In this document: in pieces, positions 22,580 to 32,303 of the stretch
How the letters are laid out: the number at the start of each line of letters is the position of its first letter
Position numbering within the stretch: the stretch's first letter is position 1
Program-made: the position numbers and the translations under genes
Assembly (NCBI GenBank): GCA_033851935.1
Contig: JAWSVL010000004.1
Span: 672-64,671, forward strand
Length of the DNA stretch: 64,000 bases
DNA from: Sulfitobacter sp.
Lineage (GTDB): Bacteria > Pseudomonadota > Alphaproteobacteria > Rhodobacterales > Rhodobacteraceae
Direction of reading: 5' to 3'
The notes under the pieces: model-generated
Databases searched by the model: none
What the model saw: the letters and a program-made list of their open reading frames with translations, nothing else
Told to the model about the DNA's origin: nothing

Positions 22580-24909
<2,330 letters not shown>

Positions 24910-24932
24910 TAACTAGGTTAAACCAATCAACG

Positions 24933-24966
24933 ATGGCGCTCCCGCAGATGTGGGGGCGCCATTTTT
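24933..24966 (+). terminator. Intrinsic terminator after katG
   Basis: ATGGCGCTCCC...GGGGGCGCCAT followed by TTTT. Confidence 0.75.
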
Positions 24967-25024
24967 GTTGCTGCGTGCAATGGCTGGTGGATCTGATGGT
25001 CAGTTTAGGGGTTAGGTGGGCGGT

Positions 25025-25663
25025 TTAGAAGAACGCCACCCAGATGCCTGCAAACATGAATATTCCGCCAATGTTCACGCAGATGTGCCAAATCGAATAG
25101 CGGAATGGCATCGTTTTGCGGGCATAAAACGCGGTCCCAATCAGGTAGCTCACTGATCCTGCGATGATGAACCACAGTGTTTCAATTGGCACGTTGGTCA
25201 GGTCGGGCAGGGCACACAAGCCAATTGCACCCAATCCGATATAGGAGGCAGTTGACCACTTTGATTTTACGGTTTTGTTGGTGATCTTGTTCCAGATGGC
25301 GATTGCCGTAAATATCCAACACACCCACAATAGGAATATTGTCCATGAGGTGTCAGCCAGCACAAAGAATGTTGTGAAAGTCCCTGAAATGCTAGGGTAA
25401 ATTGCGGCGTGATCAATGCGGCGCAATAGCGTGCGATGCGCGTGCCACGGTGAAAAATGATAGGCAATGGATGCCAGATTTGAGGCCAGCGCACACAACA
25501 CATACACTACCAATGCAATAACCAAGCTCGTATCAAGCAGCCCGAGTGCCTTTGAAATGACAATTGTTCCCGCAGTCAGGATCATCACAAGACCAAAAAG
25601 GTGAACCGCCTGATCCGCACGGCGGTGTTGTAATACGGGGCTTGGATAGGTCTGTTCTGTCAT
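25025..25663 (-). CDS. Hemolysin III (PAQR) family membrane protein
   Basis: SIAYH, RRIDHAAIY, YIGLG, YLIGTAFY, HSIWH-like YSIWH motifs; 7 TM. Confidence 0.88.
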   Translation of the reverse strand: MTEQTYPSPVLQHRRADQAVHLFGLVMILTAGTIVISKALGLLDTSLVIALVVYVLCALASNLASIAYHFSPWHAHRTLLRRIDHAAIYPSISGTFTTFFVLADTSWTIFLLWVCWIFTAIAIWNKITNKTVKSKWSTASYIGLGAIGLCALPDLTNVPIETLWFIIAGSVSYLIGTAFYARKTMPFRYSIWHICVNIGGIFMFAGIWVAFF

Positions 25664-25918
25664 GGCAATCTCGTGCTTGGGTTGCCTCGCGTTACGCTTC
25701 CTTGCTCTCAAAGTCCACAATCCGAGCAAAGTGACGCTGAGGCAAAGCCGTTAGATTATTGTGGAAACCGCGATGACGCAGAATAGTAATTTCTATGCAG
25801 TTAAGCAGAGACACAGTTGAACGTGGGTTTGGATGTGTCTGGCAGTAAACGCTTTGCGGTAGAAGTTTGTTTACGCATTCTGTTGAAACCGCAAAGATGG
25901 TCTAAATATCCGAATCTA

Positions 25919-27313
25919 ATGATAGGAAATCAACCCTTGAACAATCGTACCATATTGGAAACAGCACGCGAAATTGACGTTATCCATGAAACCGATGTGC
26001 TTGTCGTTGGCTCTGGTCCGGGCGGTTTGCCTGCTGCACTCGCAGCCGCACGGGTGGGCGTTCAGGTGGCTTTGGTTGAGCGGTTTGGTTGTTTTGGGGG
26101 CAACTTAACTGTCGTTGGTGTAGAGGGGATGCATTGGTACCGGCATGAGGATACAATTGAATCGAACGGTATCGCCCGCGAGTTCGAGGACCGCGCCAAA
26201 GAAATGGGTGCTGCGGTTCCTGAATCGCAATCTCTATCTTATGAAATCGATTCAGAGGGGTTCAAGTTGGTTGCAGACCAGATGGTCCTGAACGAGCCCA
26301 ACCTGACACCCATGTTGCACCGTCAGTTTGTGTCCCCGATTATGGACGGCAACACAATTGTCGGGATCATCACTGAGTCAAAAGCTGGCCGCGAAGCTAT
26401 TCTGGCAAAGCGGGTGATTGATGCAACGGGTGACGCCGATGTTGTGAAACGGGCAGGCGCGCCAACCTATCTAACACCAAAAGAAGAGATGATGGCAGCC
26501 TCGGTAATGTTCCACGTCGCTGGCGTGGATAAGACCAAATTCATGGAGGGCATTAAATCGGACCCGCAGACCTACAAAGACTGGGGTGGGGGTGGTGAAT
26601 GGAACATCGAAACAACAGGCAAAGAGGATGACATGTTCTCGCCATTCCTGAAAAAACCATTTGAACAGGCGATCAAAGATGGGCTTATCCCTGCCAAATT
26701 GAACACTATCGCAGGAACATGGGGGGCTGTGCATGACACAGGAGAGCTGACCTATATGAACCTCATCCATATGGATGATTGCGATGGAACGGATCCAAAT
26801 TCCCTGACGAAATACGAAATTGAAGGCCGCCGTCAGACGATGCTCGCGATTGAGGCACTGCGACGGTATACACCCGGATGTGAGGGCATACGCCTTCGGA
26901 ATTTCGGTATGTCGATTGGCATACGTGACACCCGTAAAGTTGACTGTCAGTACAACATGACCTCTCAGGATGTGCGTGAACAGGGGCGGTTCGACGACAG
27001 CATTGGTATCTTCCCCGAGTTCATCGACGGGTATGGCATTCTCATTCTGCCAACAACTGGTCGGTACTTTCAAATACCCTATCGTAATCTTCTTCCAAAG
27101 AACGTTGAAAACCTGCTCGTGGCTGGGCGGGCGACAGGTGGTGATCGTGACAGTCACGCGGCAACCCGCAACATGGCGTGCTGCGCTGTAACGGGTCAAG
27201 GTGCCGGTGTCGCTGCTGCGTTATCGATCCAGAAACAGGTGAACACCTTGGCGGATCTCGATGTCGCTGACGTTCAAAAAGAGCTGGAACGTCAGGGTGC
27301 CAGACACCATTGA
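25919..27313 (+). CDS. FAD-dependent oxidoreductase (FAD_oxidored type)
   Basis: DVLVVGSGPGGLPAALAAAR, FGGNLT, IDATGDAD, GIRDTR, QIPYRNLLP..ENLLVAGR, TGQGAGVAAA. Confidence 0.9.
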   Translation: MIGNQPLNNRTILETAREIDVIHETDVLVVGSGPGGLPAALAAARVGVQVALVERFGCFGGNLTVVGVEGMHWYRHEDTIESNGIAREFEDRAKEMGAAVPESQSLSYEIDSEGFKLVADQMVLNEPNLTPMLHRQFVSPIMDGNTIVGIITESKAGREAILAKRVIDATGDADVVKRAGAPTYLTPKEEMMAASVMFHVAGVDKTKFMEGIKSDPQTYKDWGGGGEWNIETTGKEDDMFSPFLKKPFEQAIKDGLIPAKLNTIAGTWGAVHDTGELTYMNLIHMDDCDGTDPNSLTKYEIEGRRQTMLAIEALRRYTPGCEGIRLRNFGMSIGIRDTRKVDCQYNMTSQDVREQGRFDDSIGIFPEFIDGYGILILPTTGRYFQIPYRNLLPKNVENLLVAGRATGGDRDSHAATRNMACCAVTGQGAGVAAALSIQKQVNTLADLDVADVQKELERQGARHH

Positions 27314-27690
27314 TAGGCGGTGGTTTCGCTTGGCAATGAATGGAGTTCATTCAGGTTTATGCTCGTCGCTGCATCATATCATGGACGGTTACCTGTACAT
27401 ACGGCAGCGTATGTGTTGGAGGTCGCAGACTTATCCGTTCACTCTCTTCTAGCCAGCAAGATGATCGTGCAACATAGTCCTGCCTCGTTCCACCTAGATC
27501 GAATTGAATGATTTAACCCGCACGGTTGTTGCTGTAGGGGCAATAGTTACTCCTCGACGCGCTAGATATTGCAAATGTTCGTCAGAATGCGCGAAGGTAG
27601 CAGCAGGCAGGTAATGAATACATTGGCTGACACGAATGGCTGTTTAGCTTACATCGTTTCAACTGGGTGCCGCGGACAAGGAACAACGCA

Positions 27691-28812
27691 ATGACCGACC
27701 GATCATTCAAAATGACAGCGCCCATTTTTCGGCGCGCCATACGAATTTGGTCAGGGCTCTTTCTGCTAGCCTTTGTAACCAGCCACCTCATAAATCTTAG
27801 CCTCGGCTTAATCTCGATTGAGGCTATGGACAGCGCACGTCCATACCTTTCAGGTTTCTGGACCGGTCCATTCACTGGGATATTGCTATCTGCGTCCTTG
27901 ATTAGCCATTTCTTTCTGGGGCTTTGGGCTGTCTACGTTAGGCCAACTTTGCGGACAAACACGCAAGATATTGTTCAATTGCTGACTGGTGTGGGTGTTG
28001 TGCCACTTTTGGCAACGCATGCCATTGGTATTTCAATGCTGGCAGATGCGGGGGTGCAGTTCGGGTATGCTGATACGATCCGCTTGTTTTGGCTACAGGT
28101 GCCAGCTCTTGGTCTCATGCAGGTTGTGATGCTTTCAGTGGTTTGGGTGCATGGTACTGCGGGCCTGTTTACATGGTTGCGGTCAAAGGAAAACGCAGGG
28201 CGATTGCTGAATTGGCTCTACCTTCTTGCAGTCATTGTTCCTGTTTTTGCACTGCTTGGATACGCCGAAGCAGGGCGCGAAATGTTGATTGCTGGGCAAA
28301 CCGGTACTGAGTTGGCCAATAGCGCAGCGATACCAGAAGATGTTGTTGTGCCCTTTGCGCAAATCAAACAAGTTACCAAGGCTGTTATTTACGGCTCGAT
28401 CTTATTGGCTATTTTCACGCTGGTGGCGCGTTTCATCCGTCTGACCTTGCAAAAAACTCAAGAGGTCATCCTTATTCGCAATGGCGGCCAAGAAATGATC
28501 TCGACATCAGCACTGAGCATGTTGAGTGGGTTTGAACGCAACGATCAACAGCATGCGAGCATTTGTGCCGGACGCGGCAGATGCGGCACCTGCGCGGTCC
28601 ACATCGTTCGGTCAGAATTTCCGCTTCCGCTCCCGTCTGAGTTGGAACAGCGCACGCTACACAGGGTGGGTGCCCCAGAGGGCGCAAGGCTGGCGTGTCA
28701 ACTCACGCCTGCGGGCGGCAAGGTAGAAGTTCTGGCTATTTACCCCGCTGACTATTCATTCGAGGACCCCAGACCGACGGAAACCGCTGCACCATCCGAG
28801 GCCCTAACGTGA
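27691..28812 (+). CDS. Heme-b-type membrane domain plus 2Fe-2S ferredoxin (CyaC-like N-terminal part, no cyclase domain)
   Basis: TM helices carrying four His (SHLIN, SHFFLG, THAIG, WVHGT); C-terminal CAGRGRCGTC...RLACQL; stop shortly after the ferredoxin. Confidence 0.8.
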   Translation: MTDRSFKMTAPIFRRAIRIWSGLFLLAFVTSHLINLSLGLISIEAMDSARPYLSGFWTGPFTGILLSASLISHFFLGLWAVYVRPTLRTNTQDIVQLLTGVGVVPLLATHAIGISMLADAGVQFGYADTIRLFWLQVPALGLMQVVMLSVVWVHGTAGLFTWLRSKENAGRLLNWLYLLAVIVPVFALLGYAEAGREMLIAGQTGTELANSAAIPEDVVVPFAQIKQVTKAVIYGSILLAIFTLVARFIRLTLQKTQEVILIRNGGQEMISTSALSMLSGFERNDQQHASICAGRGRCGTCAVHIVRSEFPLPLPSELEQRTLHRVGAPEGARLACQLTPAGGKVEVLAIYPADYSFEDPRPTETAAPSEALT

Positions 28813-31061
28813 TCGCCTTGCGCCGTATCGCGATCGTACTCGCTTGCGTTTTTGCGCTGGCCTTGTCGCAGCCTGTATCGGCACAAACAGATATCGTTGT
28901 TCCGGCACCCTCTGCAAATGATCTGCATGAATTCACCCGTCTTTTGGCAGATGACCGCATTCAGGAATGGCTTAGCCAACAAGCTGACGAGGCGGAGAAT
29001 GCTGACGTCCCTGATACGCTAGGAATCCGTGATCAGTTTGATGCGTTGGTCTTGCAGACAAAAAACCGTATCGGCGCACTTATCCGGACGTGGGAAGGTT
29101 TGGAGCAGGCCCCAGAGATGATGCAGGGGCGGTGGAGAGAGCAGGTCACTGATGATCGCCGCGTCCAAAGCCTTACGTTTGTGTTAATTTTCTTGTTTCT
29201 AGGGGCTGGTTTGGAATGGCTTTTCCGGCAGTACTCAAACCCGACGCGCCGCCGCCTTGAAATTATTGAATTCAAGACACACACCAAACGCATCACAGCG
29301 GCAATATCGCGTGCAGGTCTGGCATTGTCTGGGCTCCTTGCCTTTGCGGTTGGCAGCATCGGCGCATTTTCTGCGTTTGACTGGCCGCCGATACTCTTTG
29401 CATTGATCCTGAATTTGCTGATGGCAATAGTCGCAATCCGTGTGGTTGGCACTACCCTGCTACTATTTTTGGCTCCTTATGTGCCGCGCCTTCGGTTGGT
29501 GCCAGTCAGCACTGCAATGGCCCGTGTTATTTCCCGCACGACGCTTTGCTTCTCTGGTGTGTTAATCCTCGCCATTGCATTCAATGATGTTTTTCAAAGT
29601 GTTATCGAAGTATTTAGGCCTCAGGGTAGCGAAAACGCCATCTTGGCCATTTCCATCTTGTTGGCTGCAGTTGTCACACTTGCGGCACTGGTTAGCCTGC
29701 ATATCGGTTTCTACCTTGCTGGTCGCATTAGTCCCGCCGCAAATTCCAAGCAAGCCCGCAAATGGCGCAGTTTTGTGAGCCTTGTGATCATTGTGTCGCT
29801 GGGGATGTGGGTACTAGACCTTAGCCTAATCATGTGGAGCGTGCTGTGTCTGGGCCTTCTGGTTGTATCTCTGAAGCTGCTGCGGTCTTGGGTTAATCAC
29901 GCATTTGACAATGCGATTGTCGATTATTTAGCAAAACTTCCGCCTCCGCCTGTTGTTGAACCGCCCGAAGATGGCACCGAAGTGGAAGAAATGGTCGATG
30001 AAGAGGTTCTGGCCAGTGACCCATATGAGACTTATCGCCCCATTGCACAACGGGTTGTACGGTTTGCACTGATCATTACGGTTGGCTTTATCCTCGCGCT
30101 GATCTGGAACCTCGGAATATTCGAGAGCTCCGAGAACCCTACAGTGACGCAACGCATCTTTTCAGTGATGTTAGACAGCGCAGCAGCGCTGTTGATTGCG
30201 GATTTGCTTTGGACTTGGGCCCGCACCGCCATAGACCGCAGGCTAAGTGCCTACACCCCTCCAACTGACGGCTCTGCACCCGGACCAGAGGCCCGAATGG
30301 CCACACTATTGCCACTCCTGCGGGTTGTGCTGATGGTGACATTGTTACTGATGGTGGCCATGTCGATCCTTTCCTCAATGGGTGTGAACATCGCGCCGAT
30401 CCTAGCAGGTGCCAGCGTCTTGGGGATTGCAATCGGATTTGGTGCGCAGTCATTGGTCAAAGACGTTGTGTCTGGTATCTTCTTCTTGATCGATGATGCC
30501 TTCCGCGTTGGTGAATATGTCGAGATTGACCAGCTTCGCGGCACAGTCGAGAGGATCTCGATTAGATCTCTGCAAATCCGCCATCACCGCGGAGCTGTCC
30601 ACACGTTACCCTTTGGCGAATTGAAGTCCATGACGAATTATTCGCGCGATTGGGTGATCATGAAACTCGAGTTCCGCGTGCCGTTCGACACTGACCTAAA
30701 GCTTGTAAAGAAGTTGATTAAGCAGGTTGGAGCACAGCTAAAAGAGAACCCAGATTATGGTGATAGCATTTTAGAGACACTGAAATCACAGGGCGTGCGC
30801 CGTATGGAAGAGTTCAATATGGTGGTTGGGGTTAAATTCATGACACGACCGGGCGAGCAATGGGTTGTGCGCCGCGATGCCTATCAAGGAGTGCGAGACA
30901 TATTCACTGCGAATGGCATTCGGATGGCAGAACGCAACGTGAAGGTCGAGATAGCAGGGGACGAGACGTTGACCGACGAACAACGAAAAGCCGTCAGCGC
31001 CGCAGCCCATGATGCTGTCGCAAACAAGTTGCCTCCCGGGCCTGTACCTGATGAGCCTTAA
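28809..31061 (+). CDS. Large MscS-family mechanosensitive channel
   Basis: GVNIAPILAGASVLGIAIGFGAQSLVKDVVSGIFFL..FRVGEYV...GTVERISIRS; many N-terminal TM helices; GTGA overlap with the upstream gene. Confidence 0.92.
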   Translation: MIALRRIAIVLACVFALALSQPVSAQTDIVVPAPSANDLHEFTRLLADDRIQEWLSQQADEAENADVPDTLGIRDQFDALVLQTKNRIGALIRTWEGLEQAPEMMQGRWREQVTDDRRVQSLTFVLIFLFLGAGLEWLFRQYSNPTRRRLEIIEFKTHTKRITAAISRAGLALSGLLAFAVGSIGAFSAFDWPPILFALILNLLMAIVAIRVVGTTLLLFLAPYVPRLRLVPVSTAMARVISRTTLCFSGVLILAIAFNDVFQSVIEVFRPQGSENAILAISILLAAVVTLAALVSLHIGFYLAGRISPAANSKQARKWRSFVSLVIIVSLGMWVLDLSLIMWSVLCLGLLVVSLKLLRSWVNHAFDNAIVDYLAKLPPPPVVEPPEDGTEVEEMVDEEVLASDPYETYRPIAQRVVRFALIITVGFILALIWNLGIFESSENPTVTQRIFSVMLDSAAALLIADLLWTWARTAIDRRLSAYTPPTDGSAPGPEARMATLLPLLRVVLMVTLLLMVAMSILSSMGVNIAPILAGASVLGIAIGFGAQSLVKDVVSGIFFLIDDAFRVGEYVEIDQLRGTVERISIRSLQIRHHRGAVHTLPFGELKSMTNYSRDWVIMKLEFRVPFDTDLKLVKKLIKQVGAQLKENPDYGDSILETLKSQGVRRMEEFNMVVGVKFMTRPGEQWVVRRDAYQGVRDIFTANGIRMAERNVKVEIAGDETLTDEQRKAVSAAAHDAVANKLPPGPVPDEP

Positions 31062-31387
31062 AGCGTTGACCTATTAGCCATCAGGTTTGCTTTCGAAGAA
31101 TTCAACATTGAACATCAATCGGCGGTGGAAGAGGGCGCTGTTACCCTACGTGAAGGGACTCCAACGTGCTTCCACTTTGATGGTTTGGGGGGATTGCTTT
31201 GGCAATTGTTGAAGTACAGCCCTCTAAATCTCCCATTCTCAAATAACTGTAAGGAACGCGACATATTGGCGTAAGGAAACTCAACAATACCCCAACTTGT
31301 ATTGAGTGATGTAGTGCCGCCCATACAGGCCACGCTTTATCATTTGAGGCGCTTGACGTAAGATTTAGAGAATTCAGAGGGACCTAT

Positions 31388-32020
31388 ATGGACTACGCCG
31401 AACTTACCAAAGCCTTTGGGGCATTTTTTGCGATTATGAATCCGTTTGTGAATTTGCCGATTTTTTTGGCTTTGACTGCAGGGTTTACGGTGACACAACA
31501 GCGCACACTCGCTTGTAAGATAACGATTTTTTCGGCGATTATGTGTTTGGTGATCTTGGTTGCAGGACAAAAAATCATCGGTTTCTTTGGGATCACTGTT
31601 GATCAGTTTCGGATCGCGGGCGGTATCGTGTTGGCTCATATCGCATGGTCTATGCTGAACGGAAACGACATCTCATCACATCACGGCACTGCTAAGGAAA
31701 AAGACTATATCCAAGATCTTTCTGGCCTCGCGTTTTACCCAATTACCTTTCCGATGATTGTTGGACCGGGAACAATAGCGACGCTGATAATATATGCGGG
31801 CCACGCAAAGGGAATTAGCGGATTGATCGCTGTTGGTGGGGTTGTAGGCGTCATTTTGGCGATGCTGTTTTTTGTACTGTTCTTCGCATCGTTCTTTGGC
31901 AAAGCTCTGACAGACACAATGCGCGTTATCATGACGCGTTTGATGGGAATGATTTTACTGGCAATCGCAGTAGAAATGATAGTTGCGGGTACAAAGGCTG
32001 TACTACCGGGACTGGCGTAA
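31388..32020 (+). CDS. MarC family membrane protein
   Basis: FAIMNPFVNLPIF, FRIAGG, PITFPMIVGPGTIA, RLMGMILLAIAVE. Confidence 0.92.
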   Translation: MDYAELTKAFGAFFAIMNPFVNLPIFLALTAGFTVTQQRTLACKITIFSAIMCLVILVAGQKIIGFFGITVDQFRIAGGIVLAHIAWSMLNGNDISSHHGTAKEKDYIQDLSGLAFYPITFPMIVGPGTIATLIIYAGHAKGISGLIAVGGVVGVILAMLFFVLFFASFFGKALTDTMRVIMTRLMGMILLAIAVEMIVAGTKAVLPGLA

Positions 32021-32030
32021 GGGGCCGAGA

Positions 32031-32303
32031 ATGAAACTGTTCAATCCAGACAACCATACCAAATCCGAGGACCACAAACGGCTCTATGCTCTTTGTGAAG
32101 TGGCCTACACATTTGTCGATTTCTCAGCGGCAGCGCTTTTTGTCATAGGCAGCGTCCTTTTCTTCAAGGAAAGCACAACCTATTTTGGAACCTGGCTTTT
32201 TGTTGTCGGTTCGGTGTTGTTTGGATTACGCCCAACCATCAAGTTGTATCGTGAGTTTGGATACCTCAGGCTTGGGGACTACGACGATATCAACAAAGGA
32301 TGA
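32031..32303 (+). CDS. YrhK-like small membrane protein
   Basis: YEx-AYT-xVDF-type motif (CEVAYTFVDFSAAALFVIGSVLFF...GTWLFVVGSVLFGLRPTIKL). Confidence 0.78.
   Translation: MKLFNPDNHTKSEDHKRLYALCEVAYTFVDFSAAALFVIGSVLFFKESTTYFGTWLFVVGSVLFGLRPTIKLYREFGYLRLGDYDDINKG

Follow-up and report, generated by a model that had tools for sequence, protein, structure and literature searches.

A cyclase-type anchor–ferredoxin module encoded in an overlapping pair with a YbiO-type MscS-like channel: a candidate redox-regulated two-gene unit from Sulfitobacter

The adenylate cyclase with a di-heme-B membrane anchor that has been studied is reportedly the redox-regulated CyaC of Sinorhizobium meliloti, in work ascribed to Wissig et al. 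in 2019. According to excerpts of two papers, the six-helix domain of this enzyme binds two heme-B groups, and ubiquinone oxidises or reduces these hemes, changing cyclase activity (PMC10463352, PMC9552081). A cluster of ferredoxin-associated class IIIb cyclases with a cytochrome-b-like anchor has also been described (cluster 1 in the sections used here of Beltz et al., 2016, PMC4821796). MscS-like channels are taken, in passages of a 2026 review of the family (PMC13591265), to be gated by tension alone, without accessory proteins. Here we describe a locus that joins the two kinds of protein. It lies in a 64,000-nucleotide stretch of Sulfitobacter sp. (contig JAWSVL010000004.1, hereafter the window) and consists of gene A, which encodes a relative of the sensor part of these cyclases, and gene B, which encodes an MscS-like channel and overlaps the end of A. 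The features of the locus are as follows.

27691–28812, + strand: gene A, a 373-aa membrane protein with a six-helix di-heme-b-like anchor and a cytoplasmic 2Fe-2S ferredoxin domain, without a cyclase domain
27691–28449, + strand: anchor domain of gene A, residues 1–253, six long helices with invariant H32, H73, H110 and H154
28462–28737, + strand: ferredoxin (2Fe-2S) domain of gene A, residues 258–349, with C292, C298, C301 and C336
28798–28801, + strand: GAGG, a Shine-Dalgarno-like sequence for gene B within the last codons of gene A, 7 nt ahead of the GTG
28809–28812, + strand: GTGA overlap, the start of gene B over the stop of gene A, a signature of translational coupling
28809–31061, + strand: gene B, 750 aa, an MscS-like channel of YbiO type that has a signal peptide, a short helical region in the periplasm, 11 long helices and both the beta- and the C-terminal domain of MscS

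We propose that A may be a redox sensor of the quinone pool that acts as an auxiliary subunit of channel B, the two genes forming a redox-regulated MscS-like unit. We hold this reading with about even confidence, because both the physical contact of the two proteins and an influence of A on gating are entirely inferred.

Gene A and the sensor module of class III cyclases

The open reading frame that contains gene A runs from 27667 to 28812, on the same strand as gene B; we set the start at the ATG at 27691, because an identical database protein (P0001) and orthologues are 373 aa long. Pfam gives a single match, Fer2 (PF00111, residues 280–340, 24.9 bits against a cut-off of 21). Since the same scan finds no cyclase domain (PF00211) and the frame stops at residue 373, A is not a cyclase, only a relative of the sensor module of cyclases. 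In the AlphaFold2 model (mean pLDDT 76.7) six helices (4–40, 60–83, 91–119, 138–164, 170–203 and 222–253) are followed by a beta-rich domain (258–349) and a disordered tail. The four His lie one per helix on helices 1–4, and the Cys form the 2Fe-2S motif C292-x5-C298-x2-C301-x34-C336. All eight residues are invariant in 16 of 16 orthologues and then in 41 of 41. The protein stops 37 residues past C336, about 20 residues past the ferredoxin fold. A sequence-only reading of the window had noted transmembrane (TM) helices with four His and a full 2Fe-2S motif followed by a stop, and this description holds in every part.

The model was compared with 48,161 representatives of the Protein Data Bank (PDB) in a fold search independent of Foldseek. 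The top matches of residues 257–355 are 2Fe-2S ferredoxins (Z 12–13.4). For residues 1–216 the best non-ferredoxin matches are di-heme cytochrome b subunits of quinol:fumarate reductase (QFR) and succinate dehydrogenase (SDH), namely D. gigas QFR 5xmj_C (Z 13.3, 186 residues aligned), W. succinogenes QFR 1e7p_C (Z 13.0, 205 aligned) and C. aurantiacus SDH 9lay_C (Z 10.9), each spanning 186–205 residues; chance Z values for helical bundles can reach ∼ 13. These three top matches are all of one protein kind and cover five of the six helices, and the next helical proteins follow at Z ∼ 7. Foldseek finds the same cytochrome b chains weakly. A PDB profile search with A returns ferredoxins and NqrF for the ferredoxin part and no cytochrome b chain; by sequence, only the ferredoxin part matches. 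The positive N-terminal residues together with the six helices would place both ends of A, and the cluster domain, in the cytoplasm. On sequence grounds the anchor should hold two b-hemes on its four His, and an iron-sulfur cluster is predicted in the domain behind it.

The sequence-only reading had likened this architecture to the sensor part of CyaC-type cyclases, a comparison that gains support from an exhaustive profile search with gene A against 1.84 billion representatives. At E ≤ 1e-30 it gave 455 proteins, many of them 550–630 aa long and matching over the whole ∼ 360-residue module; a word-indexed search had missed all such longer homologues, a false negative given these hundreds of cyclase-length matches. 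Fer2 and the class III cyclase domain PF00211 (E ≤ 0.001) occur together in 5 of 10 scanned proteins of 519–660 aa (the other five have Fer2 only) and in all three long frames fetched from genomes. The module of A is homologous to the sensor part of anchor–ferredoxin–cyclase class III enzymes, and the whole of it aligns with ∼ 550–630-aa Fer2 plus Guanylate_cyc proteins, which correspond to the ferredoxin-associated cluster as presented in the sections used of PMC4821796. All eight His and Cys ligands are as strictly kept in 77 sequences of the short clade described below as in 81 of 81 cyclase-length sequences, gaps being the only departures. The five proteins with Fer2 but no PF00211 at E ≤ 0.001 are P0135 (616 aa), P0264 (660 aa), P0141, P0145 and P0139. 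In two of them the match to the module is split into two stretches, pointing to a large insertion, and the C-terminal parts of all five may be divergent cyclases or yet other outputs.

Homology to the N-terminal parts of cyclases, together with the name 'adenylate cyclase' that JGI gives to several homologues (NCBI has '2Fe-2S iron-sulfur cluster-binding protein'), would also fit a truncated, decaying adenylate cyclase that lies beside mscS by chance, an alternative already raised in the sequence-only reading. The conservation data refute it, and we give it next to no credence. A near-length search with A gave 202 homologues; those among the 120 listed are mostly 356–405 aa long and range from 100% down to 43% identity. 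Orthologues, including distant ones at 30–40% identity, are all ∼ 360–460 aa long and lack a cyclase. In a FastTree phylogeny of 190 module sequences (200 inputs, 10 removed for fewer than 280 aligned residues), the smallest clade with all 43 MscS-linked tips has 77 tips of 302–457 aa, bar one chimeric frame of 1088 aa. Outside it are 113 tips, 81 of them of cyclase length and mostly 540–626 aa. Because the orthologues are all short and sit in a clade without a cyclase-length protein, A is not a recent truncation; short forms at 30–100% identity keep intact frames and invariant ligands, and the channel neighbour and the overlap are kept in at least four alphaproteobacterial families and in many metagenomes. 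Short and cyclase-fused paralogues moreover occur together in two genomes (G165 and G015), from which we conclude that the two forms have distinct functions. The genome of the window has a single copy of gene A and two PF00211 genes, unrelated and on other contigs.

The 1088-aa frame (P0124; L033:3532-6846) is a TonB-dependent receptor frame (STN, Plug and beta-barrel) that runs without a stop into an A-type module at module residue 33. It lies on a low-coverage contig of a metagenome-assembled genome (MAG) labelled Verrucomicrobiota, and the contig then ends. Rather than a true fusion, the frame is probably the product of chimeric assembly or of read-through.

Conservation of the overlapping gene pair

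A scan of genome contigs for gene A gave 40 loci. A homologue of gene B lies directly downstream in 39 of them; in the other, L033, the contig ends inside A. B is full length (735–784 aa) in 37 of the 39, is cut by the contig end in L027 and stops at 256 aa in L039. In all 39 the stop of A is a TGA with an ATG or GTG 4 nt back (ATGA or GTGA). In the window the junction reads ...CTA ACG TGA, and the GTG at 28809–28811 opens the frame of B, so that the reported overlap of the TGA with the GTG of a 750-aa MscS gene proved correct. GAGG stands in the same position in 28 of the 39 junctions, as judged by eye. The arrangement of A and an MscS gene, recurring in 39 of 40 genome loci, is far beyond chance.

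The pair was followed at three taxonomic depths. Among 401 genomes of the family of the window, short gene A (E ≤ 1.3e-97, frames of 380–469 aa) is found in nine, and the first 480 residues of gene B detect the same nine (E ≤ 1.3e-79), always adjacent and on the same strand as A. The A profile has 47 further matches in this sample, at E 1e-47 to 1e-68 in frames of 526–784 aa, and the N-terminal half of B has one extra weak match (G261, 6.7e-6). The module is present in 108 of 401 alphaproteobacterial genomes of the class sample, from which eight short frames were fetched. Three of these (L044, L045 and L048), from three other alphaproteobacterial families, have an MscS gene with a 4-nt overlap behind the short A, and another three lie at contig ends; the remaining two are taken up below. 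In the phylum sample 40 of 401 genomes carry the module, the 15 non-alphaproteobacterial matches being 13 frames of 557–652 aa and two partial ones, and no short form was seen outside Alphaproteobacteria in the genomes searched.

A metagenome scan was seeded with the subclade of L048, and 80 of 173 loci were kept. The module has a cyclase-like region in the same frame in 39 of them and is short and followed by an MscS gene in 34; six are short with less than 401 nt of downstream DNA, and one runs off the contig. Not one of the metagenome loci with enough downstream DNA (at least 401 nt for short forms) lacked both outputs. The RTGA overlap is found in 30 of the 34 A–MscS pairs, L072, L079, L126 and L133 being without it. 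The sensor module is thus linked either to a cyclase in the same protein or to a coupled channel gene, and the two outputs exclude each other. The pairing of A with B is obligate, overlap-coupled and kept from ∼ 30% to 90% identity. The check proposed with the sequence-only reading, a search for same-length homologues that adjoin mscS, thus finds them in the 39 genome loci, in three further alphaproteobacterial families and in 34 metagenome loci; close orthologues have no cyclase, and their linkage to mscS is kept.

The distances between A proteins track those between the partner B proteins (r 0.96 over 820 pairs of 41 sequences; none of 999 permutations reaches this r). This fits inheritance of the two genes as a unit, though adjacent genes in related genomes would correlate anyway. 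Clustering of all open reading frames (ORFs) in the 41 loci gives no real cluster in more than nine loci, hence no third conserved gene, and over the whole neighbourhood of A in these loci no flavoprotein or FrdB gene is conserved, the channel being the sole conserved neighbour.

Signals for expression were sought around and within the pair. A promoter scan of 27250–31450 found no sigma-70-like site, and terminator-like sites there are at chance level. Metatranscriptome contigs from four libraries of one algae-associated study cover parts of A and of B at 95–100% identity. None spans the A/B junction, the X1 pieces stopping at 28772 and resuming at 28847, and DNA may be present in such libraries. 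These contigs are weak evidence of expression and prove neither transcription nor a single A–B transcript.

The only broken partner among the 39 pairs is that of L039, from a Sulfitobacter MAG, where the channel gene (L039:7098-7868) gives way to unrelated AT-rich DNA, either by an insertion or other disruption or by misassembly. Upstream of the pair, the window has a catalase-peroxidase-like gene, named by eye (22624–24909), a Haemolysin-III-family membrane protein (25025–25729, − strand) and a PF12831 FAD-dependent oxidoreductase (25817–27313), followed by a 377-bp gap to gene A. Downstream lie a MarC-family membrane protein (31388–32020) and a YrhK-like small membrane protein (31983–32303), whose frames overlap by 38 nt. 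Neither the upstream genes (22624–27313) nor the MarC-family and YrhK-like genes (31388–32303) are conserved beside the pair in other genomes. Of KatG, the HlyIII-family protein, the FAD oxidoreductase and MarC, considered as a conserved third gene, only HlyIII recurs, in one locus (L023).

The channel and possible roles of its partner

Gene B matches the MscS beta-domain (PF00924, 61 bits) and C-terminal domain (PF21082, 33 bits) above the Pfam cut-offs, as the sequence-only assignment to the MscS family had it, and PF21088 (TM2/3) just below (22.5 bits against 23.1). The nearest NCBIfam model is that of YbiO (NF008542), which covers residues 411–721 only; as its score of 173.4 bits compares with an equivalog cut-off of 596, B is a relative, not an orthologue, of E. 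coli YbiO. A profile of B finds the solved YbiO chains 9go3_A and 7a46_A at E 5e-59 over residues 96–706, and MscS chains in the PDB at E 1e-13 to 5e-40. The AlphaFold2 model (pLDDT 74.7) has 11 long helices ahead of the beta-domain (115–152, 158–188, 194–220, 235–269, 274–307, 314–335, 339–376, 405–432, 446–480, 493–523 and 529–564). The start is signal-peptide-like, and the periplasmic helical stretch carries a region of invariant motifs. Among orthologues the N-terminal half is variable (mean distance 0.57) and the C-terminal half highly conserved (0.21). As a member of the MscS family, B is predicted to be gated by membrane tension.

We suggest the following mechanism for the proposed redox-regulated unit. 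The fumarate-reductase-like anchor of A would carry two b-hemes on its four His; these may equilibrate with the membrane quinone pool, a coupling drawn by analogy with CyaC, and hand electrons to the 2Fe-2S cluster at the cytoplasmic face. In the cyclases the module stands directly ahead of the catalytic domain, whose activity it sets. In A the catalytic domain is gone, and the module would instead be made by coupled translation with the YbiO-type 11-helix channel. A might then dock on the peripheral helices of B, on its cytoplasmic cage or on both, and the redox state of its cofactors could shift the tension threshold or the open probability of B. The respiratory state would in this way control the release of solutes and ions through the channel.

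Several observations weigh against such a mechanism. Class III cyclases are active as dimers and MscS channels are heptameric, so that signal transfer in the pair cannot be a plain copy of that in the cyclases. YbiO-type channels function without a partner, and activation of mechanosensitive channels needs no accessory proteins, as stated in the passages used of PMC13591265. The orthologues of B share no invariant Cys, and their sole invariant His (592, 593 and 598) are in the beta-domain, which leaves B without any feature resembling a redox acceptor. On the side of A, D93 and G299 are the only positions that set the MscS-linked clade apart from the cyclases, which means that no obvious new interface surface is seen; as clade-specific interface residues, the two are too few to define a surface. 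Support for the clade itself is 0.959 for a core of 65 tips and a weak 0.446 for the full 77. Each gene also has relatives that stand apart from the other. The class-sample frames L046 and L047 are short A-like genes with no MscS gene nearby, and genome G649 has a B homologue without A (L055:2891-5089; 732 aa, 34% identity over the full length, periplasmic motif included). The 281-aa ORF that precedes this homologue has no similarity to A (hhalign probability 0.1), and in G778 a 718-aa MscS-like gene (L056:2696-4852) follows a response regulator, with no gene A upstream. As YbiO-like channels occur without it, A is an add-on of one channel subclade, not a general requirement. G649 and G778 each also carry an A-like gene elsewhere, at a contig edge. 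L046:4980-6263 (427 aa) and L047:5007-6080 (357 aa) have Fer2 only, come from other alphaproteobacterial families and are not part of the MscS-linked clade; beside them lie either genes for a TPR protein, an AMP-binding enzyme and a hydrolase or ORFs without a Pfam match. They may represent a third kind of output or be orphans.

Such stand-alone relatives on both sides, the resemblance of B to stand-alone YbiO over residues 96–706 and the want of conserved redox residues in B outside the beta-domain would all suit two proteins that are co-expressed for the same situation and make no contact. A would then be a small, independently working membrane redox enzyme or electron relay, from quinol to a cytoplasmic acceptor or the reverse, and B an ordinary tension-gated valve. 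We nevertheless consider this unlikely. A 4-nt overlap kept throughout the 39 genome pairs and in 30 of the 34 pairs from metagenomes, the exact co-occurrence in 401 genomes and the lack of a further conserved neighbour are the usual marks of subunits produced in a fixed ratio rather than of loosely co-regulated genes. In every other context, moreover, the module is fused to the cyclase as its signalling output and not to a redox enzyme.

The same pairing evidence speaks equally for a complex of A and B with reversed or purely structural logic, in which electron transfer through A responds to the membrane tension that B senses, or in which A assembles or stabilizes the flexible outer helices of B and its cofactors are structural only. 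YbiO (PDB 9GO3) has eleven TM helices, of which TM1–8 are unresolved and highly flexible according to the passages used of PMC13591265, and this makes a stabilizing partner for a YbiO-type channel plausible. Against this, the eight cofactor ligands show the same invariance as those of the cyclases, whose family includes the published redox sensor CyaC; both hemes plus the cluster would not be needed for a purely structural role, and no downstream electron acceptor is conserved nearby. We rate this alternative as rather improbable, slightly below that of independent functions, and retain redox regulation of B by A as our preferred reading.

If the redox-regulated unit is real, a conserved, translationally coupled heme/iron-sulfur partner would give the many extra helices of large MscS-family members such as YbiO a job, that of docking a sensor, and the respiratory redox state would be a new input to a family of channels that spans all bacteria as well as plants. 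It would provide a fast, transcription-independent link from the state of electron transport to membrane permeability or turgor. For the cyclase field the module would be a natural experiment, one sensor driving two unrelated outputs, and a comparison of the two could reveal how the signal passes through anchor and ferredoxin. With its two genes the system is small, and it occurs in culturable marine Roseobacter-group strains and in soil bacteria.

Comparison with known systems

The sensor module and the channel family are each known, and databases have merely generic names for the cyclase-less clade; the pairing is a known sensor with a new, non-covalent output and equally a known channel with a new class of partner. 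No title or abstract listed in searches of open-access papers and preprints (subscription-only literature being outside this scope) describes an MscS-like channel paired with a heme/FeS protein. A term search of the text used of the MscS review PMC13591265 gave no hit for 'partner', 'auxiliary' or 'redox' and one for 'accessory', in the sentence that accessory proteins are not needed. We tentatively suggest, with somewhat less confidence than we place in the two-gene unit itself, that B could be without precedent in the MscS family, both in having an auxiliary subunit of its own and in being redox-gated or redox-tuned, a heme-b/2Fe-2S sensor of the respiratory quinone pool directly controlling a YbiO-type valve, and that the same module may be wired either to cAMP synthesis or to solute and ion flux.

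Analogies exist among other channels and transporters. In KefF/KefC and KefG/KefB, K+ efflux systems, a redox-active ancillary quinone oxidoreductase subunit is encoded just upstream. The Kef partners are soluble flavoproteins, their protein families are unrelated to A and B, and we know of no heme/FeS membrane partner for a Kef system. The Kv-beta subunits offer another analogy. The bCNG proteins are cyclic-nucleotide-binding MscS homologues, that is, channels wired to a second-messenger input; they too serve as an analogy only.

Three described systems come closest. With the ferredoxin-associated class IIIb cyclases, A shares the anchor with four precisely placed His, the fumarate-reductase-like fold and a 2Fe-2S domain right after helix 6. 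It differs in having no cyclase domain, in an output that is a separate, translationally coupled MscS-type channel gene, and in forming a separate clade. The likeness to CyaC is that of the di-heme anchor. With the type-B di-heme cytochrome b of QFR and SDH (FrdC/SdhC), A has in common the fold of residues 1–216, the four His on separate helices and an iron-sulfur centre on the cytoplasmic side, whereas its sixth helix and fused 2Fe-2S ferredoxin, the latter in place of the separate FrdB subunit, set it apart, as does the lack of conserved genes for a flavoprotein/iron-sulfur complex nearby in the 41 loci. B, for its part, resembles E. coli YbiO (PDB 9GO3, 7A46) in its 11 long helices, the MscS beta- and C-terminal domains, the signal peptide and the small periplasmic region. 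It departs from YbiO, for which the passages used of PMC13591265 describe no partner, in that its subclade always has gene A in front.

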